Both the position numbers and the translations under genes were made by a program. A stretch of DNA of 64,000 bases, taken from assembly GCA_020632445.1 (NCBI GenBank), contig JACKFN010000005.1, positions 30,786 through 94,785 on the forward strand, given 5' to 3'. The notes under the pieces are model-generated. The model searched no databases. It was not told the origin of the DNA and worked only from the letters and a program-made list of their open reading frames with translations. This document shows, one piece after another, positions 7,600-60,723 of the stretch (its first letter is position 1; the number at the start of each line of letters is the position of its first letter). This DNA is from Candidatus Nomurabacteria bacterium (GTDB taxonomy: Bacteria; Patescibacteriota; Patescibacteriia; Magasanikbacterales; UBA922).

Positions 7600-7642
7600 C
7601 ACCTGTGGATAGACTGTGGATAATGTGGATAACTTTGAAAAC
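7600..7642. promoter_or_regulatory. Three tandem DnaA boxes upstream of dnaA (autoregulation/origin-associated)
   Basis: CCTGTGGATAGACTGTGGATAATGTGGATAAC holds TGTGGATAG plus two perfect TGTGGATAA (complement of TTATCCACA) about 105 bp upstream of the dnaA start. Confidence 0.7.
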
Positions 7643-8000: not shown

Positions 8001-8062
8001 CCCACCTTCAAAATACCAAAAAACACCAACGCTATGGTGTTTTTTGGTATTTTGAAGGTGGG
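8001..8062. repeat. Perfect 28-bp inverted repeat with a 6-nt loop (CCCACCTTCAAAATACCAAAAAACACCA-acgcta-TGGTGTTTTTTGGTATTTTGAAGGTGGG)
   Basis: Read directly; arms are exact reverse complements. The right arm ends in TTGAAGGTGGG, an 11-mer that recurs at 37869 and 40800. Confidence 0.9.
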
Positions 8063-8064
8063 AA

Positions 8065-11443: not shown

Positions 11444-11598
11444 AGATATTCACAGCATACTGTCAAAAAAATACAACAGCAAACACGCTCTAACAAAAAC
11501 ATATCTAAACATTAACAAAAAGTCAACAGGCTGTGACGCAAACCATAGACACAAAAGCATCAGTGAGTATAATAAGCGGTAATTTTTAGAAACATTTT

Positions 11599-12729
11599 AT
11601 GAAAAGGTATATTCTTTTTCCCGCCCTGCTGCTCGCGTTTGCCGTGTGTTTTTCTGGTTGTGACAAGCCGGCTGTACCAGAGACATCTGAAAGCATTCGG
11701 ATTGGATTTATTGGGCCGATCACCGGTCCTGCAGCCAAGTATGGGGCCGATAAGGCAGCGCTTTTGGCACTTGAAGAGATTAATGCCGCTGGCGGAGTTA
11801 ATGGGCAAAAGCTTGAGTTTATCATGGAAGATGGAAGGTGTGAGGCCAAGGATGCACTCGATGCGATAAACAAACTTATCAATGTTGACAACGTTCAAGT
11901 GGTGCTTGGTGGACACTGCAGTCCTGAGACCGTTGCCATTGCCCCGGTAGCAGAGCAAAACCAGGTACTTTTACTGGCGTCTCTTTCATCGAACCCAGAC
12001 ATTCGCACCATGGGTGATTATGTGTTTCGAACCACGGCAGAAAGTGTGGCACGAGTTCCAAACACTACGCAAGAAATGAGAGAGACCTATAACATTGAGA
12101 AGCTTGCGATTTTGAGTGAGGAGACCAGCTACGCTCGGCCAATCGCCGATGGCATTGCCAAAGGATTTGAAGCCCGCGGTGGAAGTGTGGTGGCTTTTGA
12201 GTCCATCCTCCCAGAAGACAAGGATTTTCGATCACAGCTTCTCAAAGTGAAACAAGAAAATCCAGATGCGATTTATATATCCACCCAAGCACCAGACAAA
12301 GCGATTCTCATCTTACAGCAGATGCAGGAGCTTGGAATGGAAATGCAGATTTTTGGAAACGAAAGTGTTGGAAGCATTCCACTTATTGAGGAGCTTGGAG
12401 AAAGCGCAAATGGAATCCTTTTTGATTCAGCTTTGTATGATAAAACCCAACCAGAGGTGGCGCAGTTTATTGAAAAGTATCAAAGTCGATATGGAAGTGA
12501 GCCACCATACGGGCTTTTGACCGCTGAGTCCTATGATGCCGTATATATCATAGCCCAGGCTATAGACGAGGTTGGCACAGATCCAGAGAAGGTGAGAGAT
12601 TATCTTTATTCCGTTAAGGAGTATCACGGCGCATCTGGAACCTTTGGTTTTGATGAAAACGGTGATGTGAAAAGGAGATTTATTCTCAGTGAGATTCGTG
12701 ACGGTCGGATAGTACAATTGGCTGATTAA
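11599..12729 (+). CDS. LivJ-family substrate-binding lipoprotein (orphan)
   Basis: MKRYILFPALLLAFAVCFSGCD lipobox; IRIGFIGPITGPAAKYGADKAALLALEEINAAGGVNGQKLEFIMEDGRCEAKD... Paralogous to 9569..10645. Confidence 0.75.
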   Translation: MKRYILFPALLLAFAVCFSGCDKPAVPETSESIRIGFIGPITGPAAKYGADKAALLALEEINAAGGVNGQKLEFIMEDGRCEAKDALDAINKLINVDNVQVVLGGHCSPETVAIAPVAEQNQVLLLASLSSNPDIRTMGDYVFRTTAESVARVPNTTQEMRETYNIEKLAILSEETSYARPIADGIAKGFEARGGSVVAFESILPEDKDFRSQLLKVKQENPDAIYISTQAPDKAILILQQMQELGMEMQIFGNESVGSIPLIEELGESANGILFDSALYDKTQPEVAQFIEKYQSRYGSEPPYGLLTAESYDAVYIIAQAIDEVGTDPEKVRDYLYSVKEYHGASGTFGFDENGDVKRRFILSEIRDGRIVQLAD

Positions 12730-26600: not shown

Positions 26601-27257
26601 CCTGGATATGTCTCAGTTCTTCCTGGAATTTTGGGATCACAGATTTTTTATGTGCAAGACCGTGAGGCAGGAATACAGATATATATGCATAGTAAGGAAT
26701 TCCCTGAGCTTTCATATGGTGACTTTGTGTCAATAAATGGTGAAGTTTCTGTGGTCGGTGGTCAAAAACGAATTAAGGTAAAACAGCCAGAAAACATTCG
26801 TGTTCTGTCAAAAAATGATCAAGAGATTTTGTCGGAATTTGTGGTTGATCGTGAACTTTCACAGATCGATGAAACACTCCATGCTAGGCTTGCGCAGGTC
26901 CATGGTGAGATCACAGAGCTCAGGGGGTCTCAGATGTATATTGACGACGGGAGTGAAGAATTTTTGGTGTATTTCAAAAAAGGAACAGGAATAACACGAA
27001 GTATGTTTTCGCTGGGGCAAAACGTTCGAGTGAATGGAATTGTTGAAAACACACTTACCGGAATGCGTATATTGCCGCGGTCTGTTGATGACGTCATGGT
27101 TTTACCGGCCTTTGGAGAGGTTACGAAAGCCACATCTGCTGTTCAGGAGGAGTTATTGGTACCCCTCAAAAAAGAAAAGAGCCAAGTTCCCTACGGGTTC
27201 TTGGCCTTTTGTGTCGTGGTTGGTGCAATTGTCATTAAAGTTGTGCGCAGTCAGTAA
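23679..27257 (+). CDS. Large secreted/anchored protein (1192 aa) with about five lamin-tail-domain (LTD) repeats, a PKD-like domain and a C-terminal OB-like region plus TM anchor
   Basis: Signal peptide MHIRRVFFILSLCSIIVGINVVEA. Repeated LTD signatures (VISEVSLAG...FVELFNPTSQDVNLTGYRL; VIINEVLANPHDGVEWVELYNPNSVAVGIDGWTL; LISELVSDPTDGEDEFVELYNASNEVIDLSGWFI; IFPNPIGDDSTGEYIEIVNLEQTPVDISGWRI; VISEIFPNPSGSDEAEFIELYNPTEDDIDMSGVFL). PKD-like VLAVSQTQVDVGEEVIFDVSQSSDPEGDSL. C-terminal hydrophobic segment FLAFCVVVGAIVIKVV. Confidence 0.7.
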   Translation: MHIRRVFFILSLCSIIVGINVVEADFDQPVSHIVISEVSLAGESSTKDEFVELFNPTSQDVNLTGYRLAKYTASKTLEDDSQTLAMLDNLFIPSHGFLLIAHQEYVYRNSSTAEFVAPDIVYGGNVDVSISNNNAIVLQNSTGVIDVVGFGSASTFESSVVSNPSKGKSLERNPGGLLGHGTDTDNNYEDFFVAERSPKNAHSDRIKRSENAKPSVVLAVSQTQVDVGEEVIFDVSQSSDPEGDSLIFSFDFADGEFVSTTTDQLVHSYSIPGEYLVEVRVQDSYENISEQTVLITVIATVVDMPPPLGLKVIINEVLANPHDGVEWVELYNPNSVAVGIDGWTLHDNARTSNLFGAIAPKGFMIVSSTSRLNNSGDKILLKDIENKTVDAMYYGSYTDQGRSSTQHNAIIPGVDEALIRFPDGQDSDNDLNDFLLTSLSTPWQKNELVPIVISESEVSQKDESSIFSPPSFTSSEPKRFAIGSMLISELVSDPTDGEDEFVELYNASNEVIDLSGWFIQDGSTRKTLLEDRKVEPGKYYVLASPRGNLNNGGDLVKLYDKDGQVIDQLAYGDFDDGNIADNAPVAVDPYSLIRKQKGFDTDNDARDFVVTQKVTRERENVFAQVREEEQKTVETKSSEAPSVRQVSADRVVRIHAIFPNPIGDDSTGEYIEIVNLEQTPVDISGWRISDATAKQYIIDVLTLAPSSTHRFERSVTGIALNNSGSEQVKLMLPNGAIVQRLEYAGSVSEGAVFVRQSDGTYVWEGGEAHAREAFEEVEEVESDDDLFADSNAVMGREYVQDGAVGGYLGANILDVVISEIFPNPSGSDEAEFIELYNPTEDDIDMSGVFLDDGALGSRPFVVPVGSILLPGQYMVFPRSVTGLVLNNTADSLRILDQDKNEMLAISYHNSPEGSSYIENGDGQYVWTTTVTPGEENVFTTQKTVATKITQSIVMPQSLSLAQIRDSDTGDLVSFPGYVSVLPGILGSQIFYVQDREAGIQIYMHSKEFPELSYGDFVSINGEVSVVGGQKRIKVKQPENIRVLSKNDQEILSEFVVDRELSQIDETLHARLAQVHGEITELRGSQMYIDDGSEEFLVYFKKGTGITRSMFSLGQNVRVNGIVENTLTGMRILPRSVDDVMVLPAFGEVTKATSAVQEELLVPLKKEKSQVPYGFLAFCVVVGAIVIKVVRSQ

Positions 27258-47988: not shown

Positions 47989-48645
47989 TTAGGCAACCAC
48001 GCTGGAGCGGTGGTCAAGGGCCTCGGCGATCGCAGCAAGGGGCATGGTGAATTCTCGATCACCTTTTTGGAACATAACCTCGCCCCTGCGCAGCAGGTTG
48101 CGGACGGTGCTCTGCGTGATGTGCAGTACGCCGATGAGGTGACACATCTCGATGCCGTAACGTCGGATGACCAGGTAGGCCGCGAGTTGGCGGATGAGGG
48201 CGTATCGGCCTCTCGTGTGAGCGACGATGTCGCCGATATCACAATCGAAGACGATGCAGACCAGGTGGAGGATCTCACGAGCGCCAGCTTCTCCATGAAG
48301 GGACGAATCCCTTAACTGGATCCGAGGGGCCAGACTCCTAAAGGAAAGCCCGTGACGATGCATCATGGAGCGCACGCGGGACCGCAGTGTGGTGCTGGAC
48401 ACGCGTGTATCGAACTGTGCGGAAGTCAAGGACACGAGCTCACCGATGGTGTCGATCCCGTCACAAACCAGCCGACCTCTTCGCCAGATGCTGCAGAGTT
48501 CTTCGGCGTCGTCCATTGACAGACCAACGAGTTCTTCACACAGGAAGGTGTCTCCGGAAATACCCGACATGGCAGCTGCTCCGCAGATGATTGTGGTCAC
48601 TATCGGACAGAGTAAAGGAATTCTCGTCAAATGTAAAGCAGGCAT
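47989..48645 (-). CDS. GC-rich island protein with a C-terminal DnaA-domain-IV-like helix-turn-helix
   Basis: C-terminal RGRYALIRQLAAYLVIRRYGIEMCHLIGVLHITQSTVRNLLRRG aligns with the DnaA DNA-binding domain (compare this genome's own DnaA, [35 protein letters not shown]). The likely start is an internal ATG at 48570, which has a GGAGCAG SD. Stop TAA followed by CCCTACCGCGACGCCCCACCCGTCAAACC, then a terminator. Other frames in this about 64% GC stretch are also open. Confidence 0.4.
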   Translation of the reverse strand: MPALHLTRIPLLCPIVTTIICGAAAMSGISGDTFLCEELVGLSMDDAEELCSIWRRGRLVCDGIDTIGELVSLTSAQFDTRVSSTTLRSRVRSMMHRHGLSFRSLAPRIQLRDSSLHGEAGAREILHLVCIVFDCDIGDIVAHTRGRYALIRQLAAYLVIRRYGIEMCHLIGVLHITQSTVRNLLRRGEVMFQKGDREFTMPLAAIAEALDHRSSVVA

Positions 48646-48721
48646 GCTTTCAAGAGAAGCCGTTTCCTGTTTTTTGGTGTATGCTTCCTTTGTTTTGTGT
48701 GATATACTTTACAGGTAAAAT

Positions 48722-49396
48722 GTGTGTATGAAGAGCCGTTTTTTCTTGTGTATCAGTTTTTTTATTCTTTGTTGGCTTGCATGGCCAATTTCCTCGGATG
48801 CCTCCATGACAGGGGGGAGTTTTGAAATATATGCGGATGGCTTTTCCATGAATGACGCATCAAGCTCTACCGGAGGACTTCTGTCTCTTGAATCTACGGT
48901 AGGTGACTCATTTGCAACCACGACCGTGGGAGGTGCAATTACTTTACGTGGAGGATTTCAAGCAATGGAGAGAGGGATCCTGCGTCTTTCGCTCAGCAGT
49001 ACAACATTAGATTTTGGAACACTGTCAACAGGATCGATTACAACGAGTACACTTGTCGTTACGGTTTCGACGGATTCTGAAACTGGATATTCGCTTATGT
49101 TGAAAGAAGATGGAAATCTTCGTTCAGGAGTACACGACATCAATGATGTTGCCGATGGTTCTGTAACCGCCGGTCAAGAGGAATATGGTGTGTCGGTAAC
49201 AAGTACTGATCGAGCGGGTACGCTTCCTGCTGGTGATAGGCCGATCATTGCGGCAGGGACCACTATCGCGCAGTCATCGGGACAAGTTACGGATAGACAA
49301 ACAACGCTTACCTTTCGGGCTGCCATTGATGCCAATGTAAGAGGAGGGCTTACCTATTCTCATCAGGTAACTCTTCGAGCAACGGTAAATCCTTAG
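48722..49396 (+). CDS. Secreted beta-rich surface protein (WxL-/pilin-like?), first gene of the giant-surface-protein cluster
   Basis: Signal peptide; Ser/Thr/Gly-rich beta-strand-like sequence; no TM anchor. Confidence 0.35.
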   Translation: MCMKSRFFLCISFFILCWLAWPISSDASMTGGSFEIYADGFSMNDASSSTGGLLSLESTVGDSFATTTVGGAITLRGGFQAMERGILRLSLSSTTLDFGTLSTGSITTSTLVVTVSTDSETGYSLMLKEDGNLRSGVHDINDVADGSVTAGQEEYGVSVTSTDRAGTLPAGDRPIIAAGTTIAQSSGQVTDRQTTLTFRAAIDANVRGGLTYSHQVTLRATVNP

Positions 49397-49404
49397 GAAG
49401 TAAC

Positions 49405-50283
49405 ATGTCAAAAGAAACACGACAACATATGAAATATCTTCTCTATTTTGTTGTAGTGTTATTTTGTGTGTACGCCCCACAATCAGTGAAAGCTTTTTCT
49501 ATTTCTCCACTCCGTCAGACGGTTACAGCTGATCCTGGTACTATCACTCGGGTCCAGCTAGAAGTCTCGAATGATTATGCACAGAGTATCGATATTGAAC
49601 CTTCTATAGACGCTTTTACCGTAAACCCACAGACAGATGAAATGCTCTATGGTGTATCGAGTATTGCCAGAGATTGGATACAGCCAAAGCAAAATACGAT
49701 AGAAGTCCCTGCAGGGCAAAGCAGGATTTTTGATTTTGATATTCGGGTCCCTGCAGACGCCGAACCAGGAGCGCATTATTTGATGCTTGTTGCTACACAT
49801 AAGGTTGGTTCTCAGGTTCAAGGTGAACTCGGTTCACTTCTCTTTTTTTATGTTGCCGGACAAATAAATGAAATGTTGAACGTGGAGACGTTTGCACCAT
49901 TGAAAAATGTGTATTGGGGTGGTAAGCCAGAAGTAAGTTTACAGTTTCGTAATAATGGAACGATTCATTTAGTTCCACAAGGAACACTCCAAATAAAAAC
50001 ACGACGCGGTGAGCATCAAACATTTGTCATGAACCCGGAAAACAAAAAACTTCTTCCACACGTTCGTTGGGAAGAAGATTACTTGATTGAGAATTTAAGT
50101 TTTTCAGATATCGGAAAGGTTTATGCGCAACTTACATTGCAGTATGGTTTTGGCGGACATACGATAATTCGAAATGTTTCTTTCTACTATCTCCCTTGGG
50201 GTCTTGTTGTTGGTATTCTTGGGGCACTCATATTTGGTGTGCTTCTTTTGAGAATTGTTTTGATTAAACGCCATGCGAAATAA
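49405..50283 (+). CDS. DUF916-like cell-surface protein with a C-terminal TM anchor
   Basis: Signal peptide MSKETRQHMKYLLYFVVVLFCVYAPQSVKA; FSISPLRQTV... start of the mature domain; C-terminal TM WGLVVGILGALIFGVLLLRIVLIKRHAK. Architecture resembles the DUF916/DUF3324 proteins of Firmicutes Csc clusters. Confidence 0.4.
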   Translation: MSKETRQHMKYLLYFVVVLFCVYAPQSVKAFSISPLRQTVTADPGTITRVQLEVSNDYAQSIDIEPSIDAFTVNPQTDEMLYGVSSIARDWIQPKQNTIEVPAGQSRIFDFDIRVPADAEPGAHYLMLVATHKVGSQVQGELGSLLFFYVAGQINEMLNVETFAPLKNVYWGGKPEVSLQFRNNGTIHLVPQGTLQIKTRRGEHQTFVMNPENKKLLPHVRWEEDYLIENLSFSDIGKVYAQLTLQYGFGGHTIIRNVSFYYLPWGLVVGILGALIFGVLLLRIVLIKRHAK

Positions 50284-53200
50284 GCTATTATTTTTGTCTG
50301 GTTTTTTACTCTCATTTGCGTGGAGTGCTTTTTGGGTTGGTAATGTTCTTGCTGATGTGAGTAGTACCAGCGCAACATTGCAGGCAACCGTGGCTGCGGT
50401 ATGTGGAAATGGTGTTGTAGAAGGCGCAGAAGGATGTGATGATGGGAACACCAATTCAGGGGATGGGTGTTCAAATGTATGTGCTGTAGAGGGTGTGGGT
50501 GGACCTGGTGTTAACCCTGGAGGTGGCGGAGGAGGTGGAAATGGAGGCGGTGATGTCACCAAGCCAACTATTGATAATATTGTTGTTGACAGGACACATC
50601 ATAGCGCTACGGTTTCTTGGACCACTACGGATGATACCAGTGTGGCCAGTTGTAGCTTTGCATATGGCATCGATGAAAGTTACGGTAGTAGCGCAGATGT
50701 TGTTTTGGCCGAGGGGACATATTCTGTAAGCTTGGAAAATTTGCAAGCAAACAAAAAATACTTTTACAGGATTCGCTGTCTGGATCCTTCTGCTAACCAG
50801 GGCCAGGTAAATGCAGACTTTACCACCAAAAATGCACCGGTGGATGATGATGAGGATCCGGTTATTTCAGATGTTGAAACATCTATTGGAAAACGTTCTG
50901 TGCATGTATCGTGGATAGCTACGGATGACTCGAGAATAGATGAATGCGTCTTTGTTTATGATGATGACAATGCGCAAGAGCCATATGACAGCAACAATGG
51001 GGTGCTTGATCTTGCGGGTGACGCTTATCGCGCAGAGATAAATGGACTCGTTCCAAATACACAGTATTTTTACAAGATAACTTGTAGTGATTTGGCTCAA
51101 AAGACGGTTGTCCACCTTGGATTTTTTGTTACTGACGCCGACAATGTTCCCCCTCCAGATGTTGAGGTCATACAACCCACACCAGGAGATAAAAGTATAG
51201 AAGTAGAATGGGTGTTTGCTGCCGATGTGATTGATGACTTTGGGTCATTTATGATTAGGCGAAAAATTGGAGGTCGACCGCTTACGCCTGATAATGGCCA
51301 ACTGGTAGCTCAGATTCCAAATGTGGGAACATCCCGACTGGTAGATAATGGTTTAATAAACGGCCAAGAATACTACTATACGATTTTTGTTTTTGACACA
51401 TCGGGGAATGCAAGTAATGGTAAGTCAACTTCAGCCATACCAAATGGTGCGTTGCCTGAGCAAGAGGTGTGTGACAATGGAATTGATGATGATTTTGATG
51501 GTGCTATTGATTGTGATGATAATGTTTGTGCCGCTGATGCAGCCTGTGTGGATCCGGCTGACGGAGGGGATCAGGGAGACGGCGGAGATCAAGGGGACGG
51601 CGACCCAGGGGATCAAGGAAACGGTGGAGATCAGGGTAACCAAGGAGATGGTGGAAACAATGATGGCGGAGACGATCAAGGTGGTGATGTTGGTCCTGCT
51701 GGTGGTGGACCAGGTGGCCAAGGAGGAGCGGTACCAGATGGAGGTGGCCCAGGTGGAGGAGGGCTTCCAATTGTTCCAGAAATTTGTAACAACGAAGTTG
51801 ATGACGATGGTGATGAAAAAGTTGATTGTCAGGATATAGATTGCGCACTTGCTCTTGAGTGTTTTGAGCAACTTGTTGAGGTAAAGTGTGATGATGGACT
51901 CGACAATGATCATGACGGTTTGAAGGATCAAGAAGATCCAGACTGCGTTGTTCAACAAGAAATTAAAGATGCCAAAGAAAAAGGAGCACAGGATGGTGAT
52001 GTTGGTGAGGGTAAAATCCCTCAAGGGGCTCCTGTTTATTGGCTTAGTCAGAGGCAGCTTCGTGCTCCGGTTATTAAAGGAAGAGTTTCCGCTTTGCAAA
52101 ACACTCAGATTACCATTGGGATTGATAGCCTACAAATAGAAAAAGAAGTTCGTTTAATGGCTTTGGTGCTTGGCGGGACGAACTATGTTTTTGATAAAGA
52201 ACTTGACGGTTGGTACTATGCAGACTTTTTTATTTCCCGTGTTGGTGTTTATGAAGCGCAAATTGTTGTTTCGTATGAAGATGGAGATGCTCAGCAAATT
52301 CCTATTCAAATTGCTATTGTACCACCTGGAGTTATCGCTGAAAGTGGAACCGGGCGGCCACTCTCGGGTGTAAAAGTAACACTTCTTCACGAAGATAAAA
52401 CGTCGTGGAATGGTTTTGTCCTTGGACAACAGAATCCTTTTATCACTAAGGAGACAGGGATGTACGCCTTTTTGGTGCAACCAGGAAAGTATCGAATGCG
52501 GATAGAAAAAGATGGGTACAACACGTATCAGACATTGGTGTTTACCGTGGAGGGGAATGTAATTAACAAGTCATATGAGCTCATTGCCAAGGCTCCTTCG
52601 CTTTTAGAAGGGGTAGACGCAGATGCACCTGTTTTGGAAAACGTCCAAAAACTTGCTTCAAACCTTGGGAAGCAGGTTGTCGAAAAGACAAAGGTCGTTG
52701 GTCAAAAAGCGCAAGCAGTAAAAGAAAAAGTAGATGAGATCGCCGATGATGAAGAAGTCGAAAAGGTTACCAAGACGGTGGTGGCACCAACTGCCGTGGG
52801 TGTTGCCGCGGCTGCCGTTGTTCCATCACTGTGGAGTACTTTTATTCCACTTTTGCGCTTTCTCTTTTTGCAGCCGTTTTTGCTCTTTGGGAGAAAGCGA
52901 AGACAAGAATGGGGAACCGTGTACAATAGTTTGACCAAGCTACCACTTGACCTTGCCATTGTCCGTCTCGTCGATACTGCCACCAAGCGAGTCATACAGT
53001 CGCGTGTTACCGACGCACAAGGAAGATATCTTTTTATCACCAAGCCTGGGAAATATCTTCTTGAAGTGACTAAGCAAGGATTTACCTTTCCATCAAATAT
53101 TCTCAAGAGCGTTCGGTCTGATGGAAAGATGTTGGATATTTATCATGGTGAAGATGTTGAGGTTATTGAAGAGGGAACCACCATTACTCCAAATATCCCG

Positions 53201-53962
53201 GTAGATCCTGTGGGAATCCACAAGACCCCGGCACGAGTGAAAAGAGATAAAATTCTCCGTTCAGCCCAGCATCTCGTATCCATGCTTGGTATATTTTCGA
53301 CGGTCGCAGCCCTCTATATCACTCCGACCTGGTATATTGGGGTCTTTTTGGCGATCCATGTGTTCTTTTATGCCGGATTTTTGAAATATGTAAAGCCGAA
53401 AAAGCCAAAAGGATGGGGTATTGTGTATGATTTGCATTCACGAAGGCCGGTGAAAGATGCCGTTATTCGTTTGTTCACGAAGGAATACAACAAGCTGGTA
53501 TCGACTCAGGTGACAGACAAACAGGGAAGGTACGCGTTTTTGGTTGGGCCAAGCAACTACTATTTCACGGTTGAACATGAAGGGTATAATGAAAGTAAAA
53601 GTAAAGAATACAACTTAACTCAGGCAAAAAAAGATCTTTCTCTTATCAAGGAAAATGTGGGCATTGTCCGCTTTGGGTTTGAAGACAAACCGGCACGAGT
53701 AAGGAGAAAAAGAAAGTGGTGGGAGAAAATATTGGGAATAAAGCCAAAACATTACCAAAAACATACACGTCGCGTCGCCATGGACGGTCCAAGGAGGAGG
53801 TTTCACCGTACGTGGTGGCAAAAAATACTCGGAATAAAGCCAAAAAGACCGACTATTGATCATGTACATCCTAGTGAGGGTCAGCTCAATGCAGTGCACC
53901 GTAGATATCATAGGAAGCGAAAATGGTGGGAGAAAATTTTGGGAATAAAGCCCAAGAAATAA
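50273..53962 (+). CDS. Giant multidomain surface protein (1229 aa): Cys-rich repeats, FN3-like domains, a Gly/Asp-rich low-complexity segment, three carboxypeptidase-regulatory-like (prealbumin-fold) domains, TM segments and a C-terminal triple WWEKILGIKPK repeat
   Basis: Signal peptide; CGNGVVEGAEGCDDGNTNSGDGCSNVC repeat; FN3-like TKPTIDNIVVDRTHHSATVSWTT...; GDQGDGGDQGDG low complexity; CarbopepD_reg-like GVKVTLLHEDKTSWNG...GMYAFLVQPGKYRMRIEKDGYNTYQ and two further copies; C-terminal KWWEKILGIKPK x3 (53701..53962). Confidence 0.7.
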   Translation: MRNKLLFLSGFLLSFAWSAFWVGNVLADVSSTSATLQATVAAVCGNGVVEGAEGCDDGNTNSGDGCSNVCAVEGVGGPGVNPGGGGGGGNGGGDVTKPTIDNIVVDRTHHSATVSWTTTDDTSVASCSFAYGIDESYGSSADVVLAEGTYSVSLENLQANKKYFYRIRCLDPSANQGQVNADFTTKNAPVDDDEDPVISDVETSIGKRSVHVSWIATDDSRIDECVFVYDDDNAQEPYDSNNGVLDLAGDAYRAEINGLVPNTQYFYKITCSDLAQKTVVHLGFFVTDADNVPPPDVEVIQPTPGDKSIEVEWVFAADVIDDFGSFMIRRKIGGRPLTPDNGQLVAQIPNVGTSRLVDNGLINGQEYYYTIFVFDTSGNASNGKSTSAIPNGALPEQEVCDNGIDDDFDGAIDCDDNVCAADAACVDPADGGDQGDGGDQGDGDPGDQGNGGDQGNQGDGGNNDGGDDQGGDVGPAGGGPGGQGGAVPDGGGPGGGGLPIVPEICNNEVDDDGDEKVDCQDIDCALALECFEQLVEVKCDDGLDNDHDGLKDQEDPDCVVQQEIKDAKEKGAQDGDVGEGKIPQGAPVYWLSQRQLRAPVIKGRVSALQNTQITIGIDSLQIEKEVRLMALVLGGTNYVFDKELDGWYYADFFISRVGVYEAQIVVSYEDGDAQQIPIQIAIVPPGVIAESGTGRPLSGVKVTLLHEDKTSWNGFVLGQQNPFITKETGMYAFLVQPGKYRMRIEKDGYNTYQTLVFTVEGNVINKSYELIAKAPSLLEGVDADAPVLENVQKLASNLGKQVVEKTKVVGQKAQAVKEKVDEIADDEEVEKVTKTVVAPTAVGVAAAAVVPSLWSTFIPLLRFLFLQPFLLFGRKRRQEWGTVYNSLTKLPLDLAIVRLVDTATKRVIQSRVTDAQGRYLFITKPGKYLLEVTKQGFTFPSNILKSVRSDGKMLDIYHGEDVEVIEEGTTITPNIPVDPVGIHKTPARVKRDKILRSAQHLVSMLGIFSTVAALYITPTWYIGVFLAIHVFFYAGFLKYVKPKKPKGWGIVYDLHSRRPVKDAVIRLFTKEYNKLVSTQVTDKQGRYAFLVGPSNYYFTVEHEGYNESKSKEYNLTQAKKDLSLIKENVGIVRFGFEDKPARVRRKRKWWEKILGIKPKHYQKHTRRVAMDGPRRRFHRTWWQKILGIKPKRPTIDHVHPSEGQLNAVHRRYHRKRKWWEKILGIKPKK

Positions 53963-54091
53963 GGTTAGCCAGCGCTGACCTTTTTTTGTCCACAAGATGG
54001 GGCGATTGAACAAAGACAAAAAGGTTTTTTTTTGGTAAAATAAAAGAAGGATTGTCACTTGTCGTGCAATTCTCATCATCTGAAATTTAAA

Positions 54092-57000
54092 ATGTTGCGC
54101 ACACCAAAGAAAACAATTCAGGAGGGTGTGTTATTGAGGTTTAAAAACGAGATCCTAACCGTCGTTATGGGAACCATTGTTGTGGTTACCCTTGTTTTGT
54201 TTGGTATTTTTGCCATGGCTGAAAATGTAGTGGGTGCGGCACCTCCAGCCATTATCACCTATCAAGGAAAACTGCTCAAAAGTGGTGCGGCCGTTACCAC
54301 GACACAACAAATGGGATTTATGGTCTATAGTGCGTCAACCGGTGGGTCGCTTTTGTATACAGCATCGGGGACACCAACAGTAACTTCGACGATTAACGTG
54401 CCCGTATCACAAGGAATTTTTTCTGTGAGCCTTGGTAATACCGGAACCAATAGTATCCCAGCAAGTATTTTTGCCACCAATACCGCACTTTATTTGCAGG
54501 TGTGGGTAAATGATGGTGGAACATACACCAAACTCACTCCTCGTAAGAGGTTGACGGCATCGCCATTTGCCATGAACAGTCAGTATCTTCTTGGGTATTC
54601 ACCTGCCGTTTCATCGACAAGTCAATATATACCGGTCTCAGATAGTAATGGAAACTTTGCCTTTCGTGGCGACCCACAGTCAACAGGAGTTGCCGGAGGA
54701 ACACTATATATCAATCCAGGGACAGCAGGCGCGAATGAAACACTGTTTGGAATAGCGCTCAATGGAAGTGAGCGTTTTCGTGTAGATGAAGATGGAGATA
54801 CGTGGATTGAAGGGGGATTGGTAGTAAGCACTACGCTCCAAGCTGCAACAACAACATTAGCAGAGCTTTCTGTTACAAACGGGATTACGCTAGGTGGCGT
54901 ACGAAGAACCACTTGGCCATCTGGTGGAGGTGGTGGTTCAAGCCTCTGGGCGAGCAGTACCGGAAGAGTTTATCCTGCAACCTTGACAGATGTTGTACTC
55001 GTTGGAAAAAATTCAACATCATCAGCGAGTACGGTTTTTGAAGTAAGTGGGTCTTCACTTTTTGAGGGAAATGTTTCTCTGAGTTCTGGTTCAACGCTCA
55101 CACTTGCGGGATCATTGACGCAAACTGGAATTTCAAGTTTTGCCACAACAACGTTTAACGGAGATCTTTCTGTGCTCAGTGACTTGAACGTTGGCTCAGG
55201 CAAACTCGTTTACGTTACAAGCACCGGATTTGTTGGGGTGAACACGTCAACACCAGGCGCGCAGTTTGCGGTTGACGGAAACGGATATTTCAAGGGAACA
55301 TATGATATAACTGCAGATTTGCGTATTCTCGATAATTTGTATGTTGGATCCCGATCAGAGGCAATTACTTCATCGACGTTTGCTCTTGATGGGGATGACG
55401 CATACATTCATGATTTGCTTGGTGTTGGTGATAGCATTTTTGTGGAAAATGCTTTGCACATTGGTACAAGTTCGCTGCATCTTACAGGAAATACTGGAGG
55501 TGCAGGTGGACTCATCCGTATGGATGGAGGGCCATTAGTTATTGACTCCGCCGGAGCGCTTAGCCTGAATACCAACAAAAATCAACAAATCTATACGGGA
55601 TCAGGAAACTTTGGTATCAACACAACCTCACCGGCGTATAATTTGAGTGTCGAGGGACAGGCCTATGTGAGTGCTACAGCCACTGCCAAGGATCTTGTGG
55701 TCAGTGATTCACTCACTCTTGGTGGTGTCAGACGGACGTCATGGCCTGGTGGAGTGGAAACCACTACAAATAACGATTTTTCTGGACTCAATACGTTCAG
55801 TGCAACGACAACATTTACTTCTACGACATTTTCTGGAAAGGCCACCATAAACAATTTGCTCAACGTGACAGGAAAAACATTCAACCCAAGACCTGCAGGT
55901 TCATATACCAACACCACGCTTTTTGATGATGTGGACAAGATTGTTGTAAAGAATAACATTGCGTATATTGGTTCTGCGACAGGTACCCTGTCACTTGTTG
56001 ATGTCAGTAATCCAAACAGCCCCGCACTCCTTGGTTCATATACGTCAACTACACTTGCGCCATTTGGTGGTGAGATGAATTTGCAGGTAGGTGGTCAGTA
56101 TGCCTACTTTGGTTCATCCAATGCATTCCATATCATTGATATATCAAAGCCAAAGTCTCCTACGTTTGTAGGTCAGATATTGAATTTTGGATTTCCTACT
56201 GGTTTGAGTGGTTCTACTGCACTTTCTGGAAGTGTTTTGTATGGTGCAAACGGCGTTGGTGGTGCAATGCCGGAATATATAGATATCACACGTGCGCATG
56301 AGCCAAGGAAGTATTCTCCAGCAGGAGCAAGCTCACTTGATCAGGGACGTGCCACTTTTGTATCGGGTCGATACGTGTATGTGCTTGGAAGCACGCCAAA
56401 TTTGGTTATCTTTGACTACAGTGATAAAACGCATCCTGTACAAGTTGGAATTGCCACATCGACAAGCTTTAGTAACATAAGTTTTACTGCGGAAAACGGT
56501 GATTTGTTTGTCGATGGTCGGTATGCTTATGTCACAGCACCTACATCGGGCTTTGGTGGTGGTGGTGATGCACTTACCATTGTGGATGTTGGTAATCCGG
56601 CTTCGCCAAGCGTTGTCGCTACATTACCTTCTACAACGAGCGCCTTGATGGATGATCCTACTTCAGTTGTTGCTGTCGGAGATTTGGTGTATATCACAAG
56701 TGAATCACAGAATTCCCTTGCCATTGTCGACGTTTCAACAAAAGCAAGTCCAACAGTGGTCGGGTCTATTACTGACTCTGGTGCTACGCTTTTACGTGGT
56801 GCCAAGTCGGTCGATGTTTCCGGAAATTATGCGTATGTGGTATCTCGGACCGACAAGTCGTTGCAGGTCATTGATATATCCGGGATCAAAGTCAATAATG
56901 CACAAATTGGTTCAGCACGTATAGAGCGAATTCAGGTATCCGGAAAATCATATTTTGATGAAGACATTGATATCGGTGGGGGACTCAGTGTTGGTGCTAA

Positions 57001-60000
57001 CGGGCTTCTGCTCAGAGGAGATTTAAATATTATTGGAAACGGTTCAATAAGTACTTCGACGATAAGTACGGGAACTATTCGTTTTGCGGGTGCGGCAAAT
57101 TTTAGAAGCGACATCACTTCGGGGAGTGCAGCATTTACCTTTAATCCTGGTGCAAATCTCGATACAGCCGTATTTAGGATACTGAATTCTTCGGGTTCGG
57201 AATTGTTTTACATGACCAAGGATGGATATTTGGGTATTGGAACCTCTACTCCATCCAAAAAATTAGAGGTGAGTGGAGATGCATACGTCAAGGACAACTT
57301 GTATGTCGGAAGGGGCACGGAGGCCATTACTTCATCGACATTTGCTCTTGATGGCGATGATGCATACATTCATGATCTTCTTGGTGTTGGTGATAGCATA
57401 TTTGTGGAAAATGCTTTGCATATTGGAACAAGTTCATTGCACCTTACCGGGGATACGGGTGCTACCACGGGTGGACTTATTCGTATGGATGGAGCTGGGC
57501 TTACGATTGATGCCGAGGGAACACTGAGTCTCAATACCCAAAGTGGGAATGGTATTAGCTTTGGTGGAAATGTCACCTCTGATTTGAGTGTTCGTGGTAA
57601 GGTGGGCTCTCCGGTAAACGTTGGAACCATTGATTTGTCATTTGGAAATACTGTAGAGGTTGTTGATGGCTATGCCTATGTTACTCTTATCGATGGTGGT
57701 TTCTCTATTATCGATGTTGGGAACCCGGCAACACCAACAACAACAGCAACCATTGATCCGGTTTCAAATTCTTATGACATCAGCGTATCGGGAAATTATG
57801 CATTTGTTTCGCATAACAATGGAGGATCTGACGGGATATCGGTTATTGACATTACAGATAAGTCCAATCCGTTTTCAGTAAAAAATTATCGGTTTTCTGC
57901 GCTGGCAGTAGAATCAGTTATTTCGGGAAATTATCTCTATGTAGCTGCCTCAACACAATTGAGTGTCATTGATATTTCAAATCCCCTTGAACCTGTTACG
58001 GTAGGTTCATGGTCTGGTGACTCTGTAGTTGGAATTGAAGTACAGGGAAGCTATGTGTATGTGAATGGTGGTACAGAAATTCATGTCATCGATGTATCTG
58101 AGCCTACAAGTCCCGTTCAGGTGGCTACATTCAACACGGCTCAGAGTATAAATGACATGATACTTGAAGACGGGTATATATATACAAGTGGTGGTAGTCC
58201 TGAAGGTGTTCGAATTTTTCGCGTCGGAGATAATGGAAATATACGACTGATTGGATCTCTGACATCAGGGCTTACCGATCTTCGAAAGATGGCAATATCA
58301 GGAGATTATCTTTATGCATCTGATTTTACTGATGGACTTGTCGTGATAGATATTAGCGATAAAACAGCACCGGTGGAAGTGGTTACCACGAATCCTGGAT
58401 CTTCTGGTGCACTTGATGTCGAGGCCGTTGGAAATTATGTGTACCTCGCTACCAAGGCAGATGGATTCCGTATTTTAGATGTCACAGCCATCCGTTCGGC
58501 CAATGCTCACATCGGTTCGCTTCGCACTGGTAGGCTGTATGTAGACAATCAGGCATTTTTTAGCCAGCCTGTGCATATCAATAGCGGACTGCATGTTGGC
58601 AATGATGGGCTGATGCTTTCCGGTGATTTTGCGATGTTTTCTAATTCTACATCGACGTCAGCCACTACAACCATGCGTTTTGGAGATACGGTGCGTTTCT
58701 TATCGACGGTGACGAGCTCTGATGATTATGCCTTTATTTTTGACACTCAGAATCGCTTGACCATCAATACTACGACATACATCATGTCCATTCGTAACAA
58801 TGGAGATCCGCTTTTCTCCATAGATACTCGTGGGGATGTCTACGCATCGGGTACATATCACGGAGAGGCCATTAATGTTAGCACCTCAGGACAGCCTGGA
58901 GACCTTGCCGAAAAAGTAGATATTGCCATAAATGAATCTGTTGAGCCTGGTGATGTTATCGTTGTTGATCATGAGGCGAATGATCGTTATAGAAAGAGTG
59001 TACAGCCATACCAAACAGGGGTAGCAGGTGTTATTGCTACCAATCCGACCATTGTCATCGGAAGCGGAAAGACAGAGAATCAAGCTAAGCTTACTATGGT
59101 TGGTCGTGTACCCGTAAAAGTAAGTGACGAAAATGGTGCGATCCAACGTGGAGACCTACTTGTTACCGGTTCTAAACCTGGGTATGCAATGAGATTTGAT
59201 CCATATCATGATACTGGCGCTCAAGCTGTCGGCGTCGTTGGTGTCGCACTTGAACCACTTCCTGTTAACGAAGGAAAAGTCATGGCGCTTATTCGTGGTG
59301 GATACATTAATAATCGGACCAAGACGCTTAGCGAAATTCAGCAAGATCTCTTATCATTGGCACAGTATGAAGGAATTCCGATTGGAACGAGTGTTCAGGA
59401 TTTAAGTATTAACATCAATTCAGAAGGGGGAATAGACAATCAGTTAGTAAATCAGGATTTGGGTGGTAGCTACATTATCAATGTAGCCGGATTGCTCGGA
59501 AAAGATGGAGCTTGGGAGGTGGATGATAATGGAAGATTTATTACGAAGGTTGCTACTTCGGCGGGTACTAAGGAGCTCTATGCTATTCAATCAGGGAATA
59601 CAGAATATGTGTTTTCGGGTACAGGACAGCTAGAGTCAGGAAGTGCGCGCGTAGATTTTGGTGAGGTTACTCAGGAGCTTATTGATGGTAATAAGCCTAT
59701 GAAGGTAAGTGTTACACTCACGTCCGAGGCAAACGGAATTTTTGTGGAGTCAAAGAATGCCACTGGATTTACGGTCAAGGAATTACAAAATGGAAGCAGT
59801 AGTGCAACCTTTGATTGGGTTGTAATAGCCCAAAGAAAGGTAATAGATAGCGATAATACTCATTCTGATGAGGGTGTTCAGGAGGCGCAGCAAGAGCGAC
59901 TAGAAGAGCAACCAGAAGAGCAACCAGAAGAGCAACAACCAGAGGTAGTGGAGGAAGAAGTTGGAGAAAGTGAAGAAAATGAAATCGTGGAGGATCCAAA

Positions 60001-60313
60001 CCCATTGACAGACGAATCGCCTGAACAGGATTTGGAAGAAGTGCCCCCGGAAGAAGTCCAAGAAGACAGCGAATTGGCTGAAGATGCCGACCCAGTGTCA
60101 GATGAGCCAACCGGGTCACAGGAGTCAGAATCAGAAGGAGCATCGGAAGAAGAGGTCTCAATTGATGAGGCTTCCCCACAAGAAGAGACGGTCCCTGAAG
60201 TCGCTGCGGAGCCAGAACCGGATCCTGTTGTTGAAGAGGTAATCGATCCAGATCCAGAGCCTGTCCCTGAAGAGGTGGTCGACCAGCCTTCTGAATCGAC
60301 AGAAGAAAACTAA
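54092..60313 (+). CDS. Giant surface protein (about 2070 aa): N-terminal membrane anchor, two tandem modules each comprising a fibre-like stalk plus a 7-bladed LVIVD-type beta-propeller, a C-terminal globular domain and an acidic Pro/Glu-rich tail
   Basis: Start uncertain (TTG at 54059 in the track; first ATG at 54092). Fourteen repeats of the form YAYV..(8-12 aa)..IIDVSNPxxP (for example AYIGSATGTLSLVDVSNPNSPALLGSY, YAYVTLIDGGFSIIDVGNPATPTTTATI). Stalk segments are about 90% identical at DNA level (about 55330..55560 and 57295..57530). C-terminal tail is EEQPEEQPEEQQPE... Confidence 0.75.
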   Translation: MLRTPKKTIQEGVLLRFKNEILTVVMGTIVVVTLVLFGIFAMAENVVGAAPPAIITYQGKLLKSGAAVTTTQQMGFMVYSASTGGSLLYTASGTPTVTSTINVPVSQGIFSVSLGNTGTNSIPASIFATNTALYLQVWVNDGGTYTKLTPRKRLTASPFAMNSQYLLGYSPAVSSTSQYIPVSDSNGNFAFRGDPQSTGVAGGTLYINPGTAGANETLFGIALNGSERFRVDEDGDTWIEGGLVVSTTLQAATTTLAELSVTNGITLGGVRRTTWPSGGGGGSSLWASSTGRVYPATLTDVVLVGKNSTSSASTVFEVSGSSLFEGNVSLSSGSTLTLAGSLTQTGISSFATTTFNGDLSVLSDLNVGSGKLVYVTSTGFVGVNTSTPGAQFAVDGNGYFKGTYDITADLRILDNLYVGSRSEAITSSTFALDGDDAYIHDLLGVGDSIFVENALHIGTSSLHLTGNTGGAGGLIRMDGGPLVIDSAGALSLNTNKNQQIYTGSGNFGINTTSPAYNLSVEGQAYVSATATAKDLVVSDSLTLGGVRRTSWPGGVETTTNNDFSGLNTFSATTTFTSTTFSGKATINNLLNVTGKTFNPRPAGSYTNTTLFDDVDKIVVKNNIAYIGSATGTLSLVDVSNPNSPALLGSYTSTTLAPFGGEMNLQVGGQYAYFGSSNAFHIIDISKPKSPTFVGQILNFGFPTGLSGSTALSGSVLYGANGVGGAMPEYIDITRAHEPRKYSPAGASSLDQGRATFVSGRYVYVLGSTPNLVIFDYSDKTHPVQVGIATSTSFSNISFTAENGDLFVDGRYAYVTAPTSGFGGGGDALTIVDVGNPASPSVVATLPSTTSALMDDPTSVVAVGDLVYITSESQNSLAIVDVSTKASPTVVGSITDSGATLLRGAKSVDVSGNYAYVVSRTDKSLQVIDISGIKVNNAQIGSARIERIQVSGKSYFDEDIDIGGGLSVGANGLLLRGDLNIIGNGSISTSTISTGTIRFAGAANFRSDITSGSAAFTFNPGANLDTAVFRILNSSGSELFYMTKDGYLGIGTSTPSKKLEVSGDAYVKDNLYVGRGTEAITSSTFALDGDDAYIHDLLGVGDSIFVENALHIGTSSLHLTGDTGATTGGLIRMDGAGLTIDAEGTLSLNTQSGNGISFGGNVTSDLSVRGKVGSPVNVGTIDLSFGNTVEVVDGYAYVTLIDGGFSIIDVGNPATPTTTATIDPVSNSYDISVSGNYAFVSHNNGGSDGISVIDITDKSNPFSVKNYRFSALAVESVISGNYLYVAASTQLSVIDISNPLEPVTVGSWSGDSVVGIEVQGSYVYVNGGTEIHVIDVSEPTSPVQVATFNTAQSINDMILEDGYIYTSGGSPEGVRIFRVGDNGNIRLIGSLTSGLTDLRKMAISGDYLYASDFTDGLVVIDISDKTAPVEVVTTNPGSSGALDVEAVGNYVYLATKADGFRILDVTAIRSANAHIGSLRTGRLYVDNQAFFSQPVHINSGLHVGNDGLMLSGDFAMFSNSTSTSATTTMRFGDTVRFLSTVTSSDDYAFIFDTQNRLTINTTTYIMSIRNNGDPLFSIDTRGDVYASGTYHGEAINVSTSGQPGDLAEKVDIAINESVEPGDVIVVDHEANDRYRKSVQPYQTGVAGVIATNPTIVIGSGKTENQAKLTMVGRVPVKVSDENGAIQRGDLLVTGSKPGYAMRFDPYHDTGAQAVGVVGVALEPLPVNEGKVMALIRGGYINNRTKTLSEIQQDLLSLAQYEGIPIGTSVQDLSININSEGGIDNQLVNQDLGGSYIINVAGLLGKDGAWEVDDNGRFITKVATSAGTKELYAIQSGNTEYVFSGTGQLESGSARVDFGEVTQELIDGNKPMKVSVTLTSEANGIFVESKNATGFTVKELQNGSSSATFDWVVIAQRKVIDSDNTHSDEGVQEAQQERLEEQPEEQPEEQQPEVVEEEVGESEENEIVEDPNPLTDESPEQDLEEVPPEEVQEDSELAEDADPVSDEPTGSQESESEGASEEEVSIDEASPQEETVPEVAAEPEPDPVVEEVIDPDPEPVPEEVVDQPSESTEEN

Positions 60314-60337: not shown

Positions 60338-60649
60338 ATGACGTACATTGACTACATTAGTCCATTTGTGTGGCACACTGGAATGATACTTGAGTTCATA
60401 GGAATTTTTATTGTGGCTATTTCTGCATTTACCGTGCTTGTGCGGGTATGTCAAAAAGGGTATACACAGCAAACCATTCGAGCCGAATTCGCGCAAAGAA
60501 TAATTTTTGGGTTGGAATTTGTGATTGCCGCTGACATCTTGCTTGCATCAGTTGCCAGTGACCTCATGCAGGTTAGCCGTCTTGGTGGAATAGTGCTAAT
60601 CAGGGTAGTTCTGGGCTATGCACTGCGTAAGGAGGCCGGGATAAAATAA
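60338..60649 (+). CDS. Small membrane protein, DUF1622-like
   Basis: 103 aa, 2-3 TM, conserved-looking GLEFVIAADILLA segment; a terminator hairpin (ATCAAGCcctaaGCTTGATTTTTTG) follows at about 60652..60690. Confidence 0.45.
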   Translation: MTYIDYISPFVWHTGMILEFIGIFIVAISAFTVLVRVCQKGYTQQTIRAEFAQRIIFGLEFVIAADILLASVASDLMQVSRLGGIVLIRVVLGYALRKEAGIK

Positions 60650-60723
60650 AATGAAAAATCAAGCTTAGGGCTTGATTTTTTGTTTGCTTTTCTTTATAAT
60701 CATCCCCACAGTATAGTATAAAA

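Follow-up and report, generated by a model that had tools for sequence, protein, structure and literature searches.

Patescibacteria, which make up a very large portion of bacterial diversity, apparently spend their lives attached to other cells. Apart from type IV pili and the Pam pili described in Saccharimonadia, the attachment molecules of these candidate phyla radiation (CPR) bacteria are largely unknown. The Pam pili of Candidatus Mycosynbacter amalyticus, a CPR parasite, have been solved (Troman et al., bioRxiv 10.64898/2026.03.03.709456): PamA and PamB consist of a β-sandwich N-terminal domain, a donor-strand linker that precedes the pilin domain, and a truncated Ig-like C-terminal domain; PamT is a single-domain tip, modeled as acceptor-only; the chaperones PamC and PamD resemble PapD and carry a C-terminal transmembrane (TM) helix, and there is no usher; and PamR, with two FnIII domains, a TM helix and an N-terminal strand, was proposed as pilus terminator and anchor. 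WxL is not mentioned anywhere in the text of that preprint. A WxL cluster, in turn, is defined by its content of one or more WxLIPs, each made of DUF916 (the PGBD domain), DUF3324 (the HBD domain) and a TM helix, together with two or more WxL proteins, with a β-hairpin of WxLIP predicted to insert into WxL (Hassan et al., 2023, PMC10599100). Here, we analyzed a 64,000-nt stretch of DNA (the window) from an ultra-small Candidatus Nomurabacteria bacterium (assembly GCA_020632445.1, contig JACKFN010000005.1, positions 30,786 to 94,785 of the forward strand), which NCBI taxonomy places in the Parcubacteria group of the Patescibacteria group. Four genes in this window, ORF1 to ORF4, probably form a conserved Patescibacteria operon that builds a surface attachment structure by donor-strand complementation, as a minimal and divergent relative of Pam.

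An earlier note on this DNA, made from the sequence alone, had described four surface-protein genes occupying 11.6 kb, or 18% of the window, and ending in giants of 1229 and about 2070 aa. Four plus-strand open reading frames (ORFs) are present where that note placed them, spanning 11,592 nt (18.1% of the window). ORF1 (48722..49396) encodes, from a GTG start, a secreted 224-aa PamT-like single-domain pilin, for which NCBI (locus H6758_03775) uses the ATG at 48728 and gives 222 aa. ORF2 (49405..50283), 8 nt downstream (32 nt with the NCBI start), encodes a 292-aa membrane-anchored chaperone of the PapD/WxLIP/PamC-D type, listed by NCBI as 284 aa (locus H6758_03780). ORF3 (50273..53962), which overlaps ORF2 by 11 nt, encodes a 1229-aa polytopic membrane protein that we propose to be an anchor or platform, and ORF4 (54059..60313) encodes a giant secreted fiber, putatively an adhesin, of 2059-2084 aa depending on the start chosen.

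Comparison of ORF1 with NCBIfam returned PamT (NF058579, "CPR-type pilus protein PamT"; 5.7e-11, 42.3 bits), and ORF1 aa 93-221 aligned with positions 3-145 of the 148 positions of Pam_pilin_C (NF058581; E = 1.5e-7, 31.7 bits). The same models were matched by 33 (PamT) and 31 (Pam_pilin_C) of 34 aligned family members, and the Pam_pilin_C scores of two-domain pilins from Saccharibacteria-type operons were no better (1e-7 to 5e-6). A Pfam scan of ORF1 gave no matches. Members of this family are ~215 aa long and consist of a signal peptide (aa 1-28 in ORF1), a flexible N-terminal extension bearing three GGxYxL motifs (aa 29-85; 48806-48976), and a well-conserved C-terminal domain with the character of an incomplete-Ig pilin domain (aa 86-224; 48977-49393). 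The mature N-terminus is near-invariant and the protein invariably ends one residue past an invariant Asn (N223); in larger relatives, the pilin domain invariably lies at the extreme C-terminus. Chaperone-usher pilins are built likewise, their C-terminal carboxylate being bound by the chaperone. The AlphaFold model of ORF1 was β-rich, with a predicted local distance difference test (pLDDT) score >90 for the C-terminal domain and ~43 for the disordered N-terminal extension; together with the signal peptide, this agrees with the secreted, β-rich protein described in the earlier note. When this model was compared with the Protein Data Bank (PDB) by Foldseek, the top matches were nearly all chaperone-usher pilins (FimA, PapE, the pilin domain of PapGII, CfaB, CsuA/B), with the donor-strand fiber TasA in third place; E-values were modest and the matches very consistent in kind. 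A search of PDB sequences with the ORF1 family profile (E ≤ 10) returned nothing, including the WxL chain of 9i25. Within the 64-kb window, ORF1 was the sole match to the pilin hidden Markov model (HMM; --max, E ≤ 10), and no hidden pilin or chaperone domain turned up in ORF3, ORF4 or the rest of the window. Two-domain major pilins of the PamA/PamB type are lacking from the window, and ORF1 itself has neither a globular N-terminal domain nor the linker motif discussed below.

The AlphaFold model of ORF2 (pLDDT 96.2) consists of a signal peptide (aa 1-29), two β-sandwiches corresponding to Ig-like domains at aa 30-150 (49492-49854) and aa 158-263 (49876-50193), and a C-terminal TM helix (aa 265-291; 50197-50277). 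Its top three Foldseek matches were E. faecium WxLIP structures (9i1y, 9i25; 1.9e-11 to 2e-10), followed by the chaperone-usher chaperones CfaA, CsuC, EcpB, YadV, Caf1M, CupB2, SafB, and PapD, and the alignment to 9i1y covered both WxLIP domains (257 columns, TM-score ~0.5). ORF2 alone gave only sub-threshold Ig-like matches in Pfam, among them WxLIP_PGBD/DUF916 (E = 0.012, 16 bits). At the level of the family, the DUF916-like, anchored nature that had been proposed for ORF2 holds: 23 of 56 aligned relatives matched DUF916 (best 3.5e-6), and the best PDB match of the family profile was EfmWxLIP1 (5e-4), in line with the structural matches. The family, as collected with HMMER and counted in clusters of 50% identity, comprises at least 2,841 cluster representatives at E ≤ 1e-3 and 880 at E ≤ 1e-10, proteins of ~290 aa that are annotated almost entirely as hypothetical. 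The family HMM also matched the chaperones of multi-pilin, Pam-like operons from Saccharibacteria and WWE3 (1e-36 to 1e-58), and about half of the close relatives of these chaperones carry a precomputed PF06030 (DUF916) assignment. Since the family HMM thus joins ORF2 to chaperones whose relatives bear PF06030, the Pam-type chaperones of CPR bacteria and the WxLIP of Firmicutes appear to be one sequence family. Residue R37 of ORF2, in the "ISPxR" of the first strand, is Lys or Arg in 95% of the family, and a hydrophobic strand, "GSLLFxxVAG", is conserved as well; judged by eye and not by superposition, these recall Arg8 and the G1 donor strand of PapD. DUF3324 (PF11797) gave no match in ORF2 and the 56 relatives (E ≤ 0.01), NCBIfam searches of these relatives returned no Pam-chaperone model and weak fimbrial-chaperone matches in two of the 56, and a search with a Saccharibacteria chaperone for named PamC or PamD of M. 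amalyticus yielded no named match.

GTDB species genomes were scanned with the ORF1 pilin alignment, and the resulting 80 loci were scored by phmmer with ORF4 and with HMMs built from pilin, chaperone, and ORF3-core sequences. The pilin was found in 79 loci and the chaperone in 74. Where at least 2.5 kb of sequence lay downstream of the chaperone (59 loci), the ORF3 core was present in 42, an ORF4-like gene in 29, both in 24 and neither in 12; a single small pilin, as in the window, was found in 56 loci. The cluster genes lie on one strand and mostly overlap or are closely spaced, in the order pilin, chaperone, core, fiber, with one locus (L058) having the fiber before the core. These loci derive from Magasanik-, Falkow-, Uhr-, Komeili-, Kerfeld-, Nomura-, and Moranbacteria, Saccharibacteria, WWE3, and unnamed Patescibacteria. 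On long contigs, homologs of ORF1 are followed by the chaperone and a third protein of 736-1162 aa, and in one case then by an LVIVD protein of 1804 aa; RmuC and TrmB lie upstream of homologous clusters, as they do in the window. That the four are unrelated secreted or membrane proteins that merely happen to be adjacent is an explanation to which we give hardly any credence. A terminator-like hairpin and a promoter-like site between ORF3 and ORF4 (described below) speak for it, but the start and stop codons of ORF2 and ORF3 overlap, the gene set keeps its strand and, save for one locus, its order across Magasanik-, Falkow-, Uhr-, Nomura-, and other CPR lineages, and variants produced by gene fission keep their modules adjacent, in one case (L046) also with a dockerin and a cohesin. 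The set of four genes, found again on one strand in dozens of other CPR genomes, is thus a real conserved unit and not a chance juxtaposition.

The 12 loci that lack both core and fiber are mostly multi-pilin operons, with two to five pilin-domain genes, and these look like classical Pam operons. They include proteins of 1,100-2,120 aa with a C-terminal pilin domain; giant proteins of this kind, 840-2120 aa long and with the domain at the extreme C-terminus, lie at 4043-10405 in L040, 4760-9799 in L053, 6152-10405 in L054, 5279-10408 in L068, and 5938-11870 in L070. The "large WxL proteins" and the two-domain tip adhesins of chaperone-usher systems share this layout, and a role at the tip, as adhesins, is therefore likely.

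A candidate for the strand that completes the pilin domain was found at the mature N-terminus of ORF3, as the β-strand motif DVSSTSATLQATVAA (50354..50398). In the alignment of ORF3-family N-termini, the consensus φ-x-V-x-φ-T-V-P-φ directly follows the signal peptide (e.g., VSVGATVPA, ITVQATVPA, and NVNATVPA; SATLQATVAAV in the window) and leads into a flexible linker that is poly-Gly/Pro or Cys-rich. A strict form of the motif occurred just after the signal peptide in 15 of 46 third-gene proteins compared with 8 of 330 other ORFs with a signal peptide in the loci, and all but one of these eight immediately follow the chaperone in the same clusters. Motifs of the same kind, such as DQVTVSATVNP and DQIAVSATVPP, are present in the linker just before the pilin domain, i.e., where Pam pilins carry their donor strand (10.64898/2026.03.03.709456), in 16 of 40 two-domain or giant Pam-like pilins but in none of 65 small pilins. 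Therefore, as the linker motif is missing from the small pilins and present on ORF3, ORF1 looks acceptor-only, like PamT, and the tip of ORF3 would bear the only linker-like strand of the operon. In four loci (L027, L034, L052, L064), the core has no such strand; there, strand, poly-Gly linker and FN3 are found on a separate 315-aa protein encoded between chaperone and core (11511-12455, 11532-12482, 11528-12466, and 11370-12401, respectively). By eye, the end of this strand protein seems dockerin-like and the start of the core cohesin-like, and Pfam (E ≤ 0.01) did not confirm dockerin or cohesin on split loci of the L027/L052 type. In L046 (13645-15677), Pfam did assign Dockerin_1 (8e-7) to the strand protein and Cohesin (2e-5) to the next protein, immediately upstream of the core. 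These arrangements hint that a physical association between the strand module and the downstream part of the cluster is maintained, and cohesin-dockerin pairing in CPR surface systems may merit a study of its own.

The operon could instead make a genuine filament, in which ORF1 would polymerize through its own N-terminal GGxYxL strand into a thin, one-pilin, Pam-like pilus, with ORF2 as polymerization chaperone, ORF3 as terminator and anchor or as an independent protein, and ORF4 as an independent adhesin. The conserved, disordered 55-aa extension of ORF1, with its three strand-like motifs and near-invariant mature N-terminus, is what such a model would call for, and the TasA match is in keeping with it. 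Chaperone-usher pilins carry their donor strand as just such an N-terminal extension. Pam pilins, moreover, do form filaments (10.64898/2026.03.03.709456). However, the best match of ORF1 is to PamT, modeled as an acceptor-only tip (10.64898/2026.03.03.709456), and the VTVxATVxP linker motif, absent from all 65 small pilins and present in 16 of 40 two-domain relatives, sits on the ORF3 family instead. We regard a filament as unlikely, though as the foremost alternative that deserves attention.

Under the donor-strand reading that we favor, all four products would be exported by Sec. ORF2, held in the cytoplasmic membrane by its C-terminal helix, would capture the incomplete Ig-like pilin domain of ORF1, and its strand would then be swapped for a donor strand, the best candidate being the mature N-terminal strand of ORF3. 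A flexible Cys-rich/FN3 stalk would bear this strand on ORF3, with the core as its root in the membrane, and ORF3 would act as an enlarged PamR-like terminator or anchor that is capped by ORF1, while ORF4 would be the distal adhesin through which a partner or host cell is bound. The comparisons establish the homology and fold of ORF1 and ORF2, the synteny of the four genes, and how conserved and specific the ORF3 strand motif is; which strand occupies the groove of ORF1, whether ORF1 polymerizes as well, how ORF4 is attached and that another cell is the target are inferences. The cluster is most likely the apparatus by which the cell attaches to a partner cell, and the analysis points, by way of hypothesis, to the strand that fills the pilin groove and to what anchors the giant adhesin.

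The architecture of ORF3 had been described as Cys-rich repeats, FN3, three CarboxypepD_reg-like domains and internal TM segments, all of which were recovered by Pfam, NCBIfam, and hydropathy. Three CarboxypepD_reg domains were found by Pfam (1.7e-25), and further Pfam and NCBIfam matches were to fn3/Pur_ac_phosph_N, PhoD_N, DUF4215/myxo_disulf_rpt, and acid_disulf_rpt (three copies). Directly after the N-terminal strand lies a Cys-rich DUF4215 repeat (50399-50491), followed by a variable extracellular stalk (50555..51952) of three FN3-like domains (~aa 95-400), acidic double-disulfide repeats and a Gly/Asp-rich linker (aa 400-560). The first ~70 residues and the core are conserved and the FN3/Cys-rich middle varies; in a 736-aa Magasanikbacteria homolog (L004), the stalk is not conserved and the core is 48% identical by BLAST, the similarity ending at ~aa 1133. 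The core (aa 587-1133; 52031..53671) interleaves three transthyretin/CarboxypepD_reg-like domains with TM segments, and hydropathy marks hydrophobic segments at aa 835-873 (52775-52891) and aa 1000-1037 (53270-53383). In the alignment of 31 core sequences, invariant motifs directly follow the TM segments; CarboxypepD_reg matched all 31 and phage_tail_N 17. We propose that the core consists of three TM segments and three transthyretin-like domains, of which the last two, also the most conserved, may be cytoplasmic because of the positive-inside rule (charge analysis). Searches of the core against the PDB gave only generic prealbumin-fold, NOMO and tail-fiber matches. The protein closes with a lineage-specific basic tail (aa 1135-1229; 53675..53959) of 95 aa and net charge +24, with three near-identical RKRKWWEKILGIKPK-type repeats and absent from homologs in other genomes.

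ORF4 can be read from the first TTG (54059; 2084 aa), from ATG 54092 (2073 aa) or from TTG 54134 (2059 aa), which lies 8 nt after GGAGG at 54121-54125; either of the latter two is more likely to be the true start than the first TTG, in line with the ~2070 aa of the earlier note. The double β-propeller and ~140-aa acidic tail reported earlier were both found: Pfam identified LVIVD (PF08309) in 12 stretches (2.3e-70) as well as Beta_propel, and 13 LVIVD-type motifs fall in two blocks (aa 644-935 and 1215-1470), within propeller 1 (~aa 615-960; 55901-56938; six to seven blades) and propeller 2 (~aa 1195-1495; 57641-58543; seven blades). A conserved C-terminal region (aa 1540-1935; 58676-59863), for which PDB sequences gave no match, precedes the acidic Glu/Pro tail (aa 1936-2084; 59864-60310), whose 149 residues include 48 Glu, 20 Pro, and 13 Asp. 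NCBIfam gave choice_anch_B and, at the other end, a weak match to Bdello_MAT_N (NF053851; aa 58-136, 8.5e-7, 28.9 bits against a 60-bit cut-off), consistent with a MAT_N-like base domain at aa 62-215 (54242-54703). The N-terminal anchor assigned by the earlier note did not hold up as well. Because the hydrophobic segment (aa 28-61) is followed, across ~35 homologs, by a conserved small-residue (mostly Ala) site resembling that of signal peptidase I, with "PxIITYQGKLL…" after it, and then by the conserved domain, it probably serves as a signal peptide that is cleaved off and less likely as a permanent anchor. In related loci, 35 ORF4-like proteins were found, always within the same cluster; aa 40-210 are conserved across all 35 and aa 1540-1930 in a subset, and the propellers come and go. 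A 44-aa segment is duplicated in the stalk, one copy ahead of each propeller (aa 434-477, 55358-55492; aa 1088-1131, 57320-57454). The two copies are identical in protein whereas their 135-nt stretches differ at 15 nt, all synonymous save in the flanking 45th codon (Asn/Asp), which suggests a module duplicated and then held under strong purifying selection.

Both giants have features that could point to a phage. In such a reading, ORF3 and ORF4 would form a tail-fiber module or prophage remnant and would have bound receptors for a defective phage or tailocin: ORF3 aa 686-752 matches phage_tail_N and PHROG tail-fiber families, and the N-terminus of ORF4 is similar to the base domain found in the phage-like MAT fibers of Bdellovibrio. 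The phage_tail_N match, however, is to one generic transthyretin-like domain, and PHROGs gave only generic tail-fiber N-domain matches for ORF3 and nothing for ORF4. The flanking genes (RmuC, GNAT, TrmB, DUF1622, methyltransferase) include no other phage genes, GC content is even over the region, and the RmuC/TrmB chromosomal context is kept in other genomes. Among 2.9 million viral contigs, no relatives of ORF1 or the ORF3 core were found. A phage origin was rejected on account of the missing viral relatives and the chromosomal housekeeping surroundings, and we hold it to be very improbable.

Several observations weigh against the donor-strand reading. ORF1 scores below the curated cut-offs of both NCBIfam models (240 bits for the PamT equivalog and 55 bits for Pam_pilin_C), and it is therefore a distant relative and not an equivalog of PamT; its conserved three-motif extension could be a donor strand, which would allow polymerization. 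The DUF916 score of ORF2 likewise lies under its cut-off (16 vs. 27.3 bits), and a second basic chaperone position (K112-like) is Glu in the ORF2 of the window. The ORF3 strand in the window is a variant, with Ala for the consensus Pro, that fails both the strict and the loose regular expressions; the looser expression is modestly enriched over background (odds ratio 3.7) and also catches signal-peptide segments (background 59/708), and we gave more weight to the strict test after the signal peptide. The topology of ORF3 comes from simple hydropathy and the positive-inside rule, and the Pam proteins of M. amalyticus were compared by description. Finally, pattern scans found a terminator-like hairpin directly after the ORF3 stop (53961..53982, plus strand; 9-bp stem, then a T-run) and a promoter-like site (54013-54041) between ORF3 and ORF4. 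The hairpin appears in both the minimum free energy and the centroid structures, with a z-score of just -1.75 for the 111-nt region, and may be an attenuation point. Given these two elements, ORF4 may be partly independently transcribed; nevertheless, it is syntenic in at least 29 loci.

The surroundings of the cluster are chromosomal, with dnaA, class A penicillin-binding protein, polA, trigger factor, RmuC, TrmB, GNAT, DUF1622, and methyltransferase genes. Just upstream of ORF1, at 47989-48720, overlapping ORFs of 218 aa (minus strand) and of 101 and 117 aa (plus strand) were noted on which gene callers disagree; conservation was found for none of them among 85 related loci, and the region may hold the promoter or regulatory elements of the operon. 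The stretch 60338-60685 holds a DUF1622 membrane-protein gene, which begins 25 nt past ORF4 and is linked to the cluster in one other locus only (L023), and, after that gene, a strong, 17-bp bidirectional terminator-like hairpin at 60649-60685. Farther away, in the region 4000-8100, dnaA (6128-8092, minus strand) and a cumulative GC-skew minimum near 4-6 kb indicate that the window probably spans the replication origin. Another surface protein, of 1192 aa (23679-27257), has five Lamin-tail (LTD) domains, a PKD domain, and an OB-fold, and a similar LTD/OB protein occurs ~1 kb downstream of the homologous cluster on a Magasanikbacteria contig (L004 14945-17908). The Magasanikbacteria cluster is also preceded, ~3 kb upstream (L004/L005 1-7145), by eleven near-tandem T4SS_pilin (PF18895) genes, interrupted by one SBP gene. 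With regard to the database records, L006, L008-L010, and ~35 other loci are metagenome-assembled genomes titled "uncultured Gammaproteobacteria bacterium" (TPA_asm co-assembly bins), and L066 is titled "Candidatus Udaeobacter sp."; on a CPR-specific cluster, these are probably placeholder or wrong titles or mis-binned contigs.

The earlier note had likened the cluster to Csc/WxL loci of Firmicutes, and in its full form this would make ORF2 a WxLIP that holds a small, non-polymerizing ORF1 on peptidoglycan while the giants bind the host, with no pilus logic. Part of that resemblance stands. ORF2 shares the architecture of WxLIP, i.e., a signal peptide, two Ig-like domains and a TM helix, DUF916 is matched within its family, and the E. 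faecium WxLIP is its best PDB match by sequence profile as well as by structure. The logic is also similar, with a small secreted β-protein and an anchored two-Ig partner, β-hairpin complementation predicted, and large adhesive proteins alongside; given the prediction that a β-hairpin of WxLIP enters WxL (PMC10599100), the chemistry would be similar too. What does not stand is membership in that family of loci. Pfam WxL had no match in ORF1-4 or in 34 ORF1-family members (E ≤ 1), ORF1, ORF3, and ORF4 contain no W-x-L motif, and the sole instance in the cluster is a WGL inside the TM helix of ORF2; because there is no WxL domain and W-x-L occurs only there, the locus falls outside the definition of a WxL cluster, which calls for at least two WxL proteins, small and large, with the dual Trp-x-Leu motif, beside a WxLIP (PMC10599100). 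In addition, the four proteins contain no LPx[TSA]G motif and hence no LPxTG protein of the CscD type, DUF3324 was not detectable, the giants ORF3 and ORF4 have no C-terminal WxL-type or pilin-type domain, and the organism is a CPR bacterium and not one of the Firmicutes. ORF1, for its part, has no PDB match by profile and no WxL chain among its top 50 structural matches, and is significantly similar to Pam pilins instead. Among the domain families that had been put forward, LVIVD, CarboxypepD_reg, and FN3 were thus detected, and DUF916 at family level, but WxL and DUF3324 were not. We consider a Csc/WxL-type complex to be improbable.

The likeness to chaperone-usher pili lies in the fold, the ORF1 model resembling FimA, PapE, CfaB, and CsuA/B and the ORF2 model CfaA, CsuC, PapD, and Caf1M, and in the pilin domain at the extreme C-terminus and, judged by eye, the basic Arg8-like position and the G1-like strand. 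CPR cells, however, are monoderm. There is no outer membrane and no usher (no usher-like protein was found in the cluster or its flanks), the chaperone is tethered to the cytoplasmic membrane, and sequence similarity is negligible. With the MAT fibers of Bdellovibrio (Caulton et al., 2024, PMC10769870), whose β-prism stalks are intertwined trimers, the cluster shares a weak match of the ORF4 N-terminal domain to the invariant base domain, and more generally very long surface fibers, variable adhesive modules, and a bacterium that lives on other bacteria. Unlike MAT fibers, with β-prism stalks and S74/NS74 tips, ORF4 has two LVIVD β-propellers and an acidic tail, and it is conserved at both ends and varies in the middle, whereas the MAT tip is C-terminal and variable.

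The closest described system appears to be the Pam pilus. Like Pam, the cluster is confined to CPR bacteria, lacks an usher, and combines a PapD-like chaperone that has a C-terminal TM helix with a pilin whose truncated Ig-like C-terminal domain (Pam_pilin_C) matches chaperone-usher pilins in fold; the likeness of ORF2 to PamC and PamD comes via fold and family HMM, the M. amalyticus proteins themselves, WP_260763277.1 and WP_260763284.1, being compared by description. By description, ORF3 also resembles PamR in its N-terminal strand, FN3 domains and TM segments, but it is ~4× larger and polytopic, with a core of transthyretin domains, compared with the single-pass PamR with its two FnIII domains. 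Further differences are the one small PamT-like pilin in place of two-domain major pilins (PamA/B/E), none of which occurs in the window, the giant MAT/LVIVD fiber gene as a conserved fourth member, and the fact that no ATP-synthase neighborhood was seen. We conclude that the locus encodes a DUF916-chaperone system that resembles Pam in minimal form, has two further conserved partners and is widespread in Parcubacteria-type CPR bacteria. The chaperone-pilin logic of Pam is thereby extended to these lineages in a different, minimal architecture, with two partners that are absent from the description in the Pam preprint, namely a polytopic transthyretin-domain membrane protein and a giant fiber, and the WxL/Csc adhesion of Gram-positive commensals and pathogens is linked with CPR pili and, at the level of fold, with chaperone-usher pili. 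More speculatively, and as a possibility that we put forward with some reserve, the operon may represent a novel surface-assembly system of Parcubacteria-type CPR bacteria in which strand complementation is a coupling device and does not build a pilus shaft: the tethered chaperone would load a PamT-like "cap" onto the strand of the ORF3 platform, and the capped stalk would be the socket for the MAT-like ORF4. WxL/Csc, Pam pili, and this operon could then be branches of one ancient superfamily of tethered chaperones in monoderms, kin at the fold level to chaperone-usher pili.

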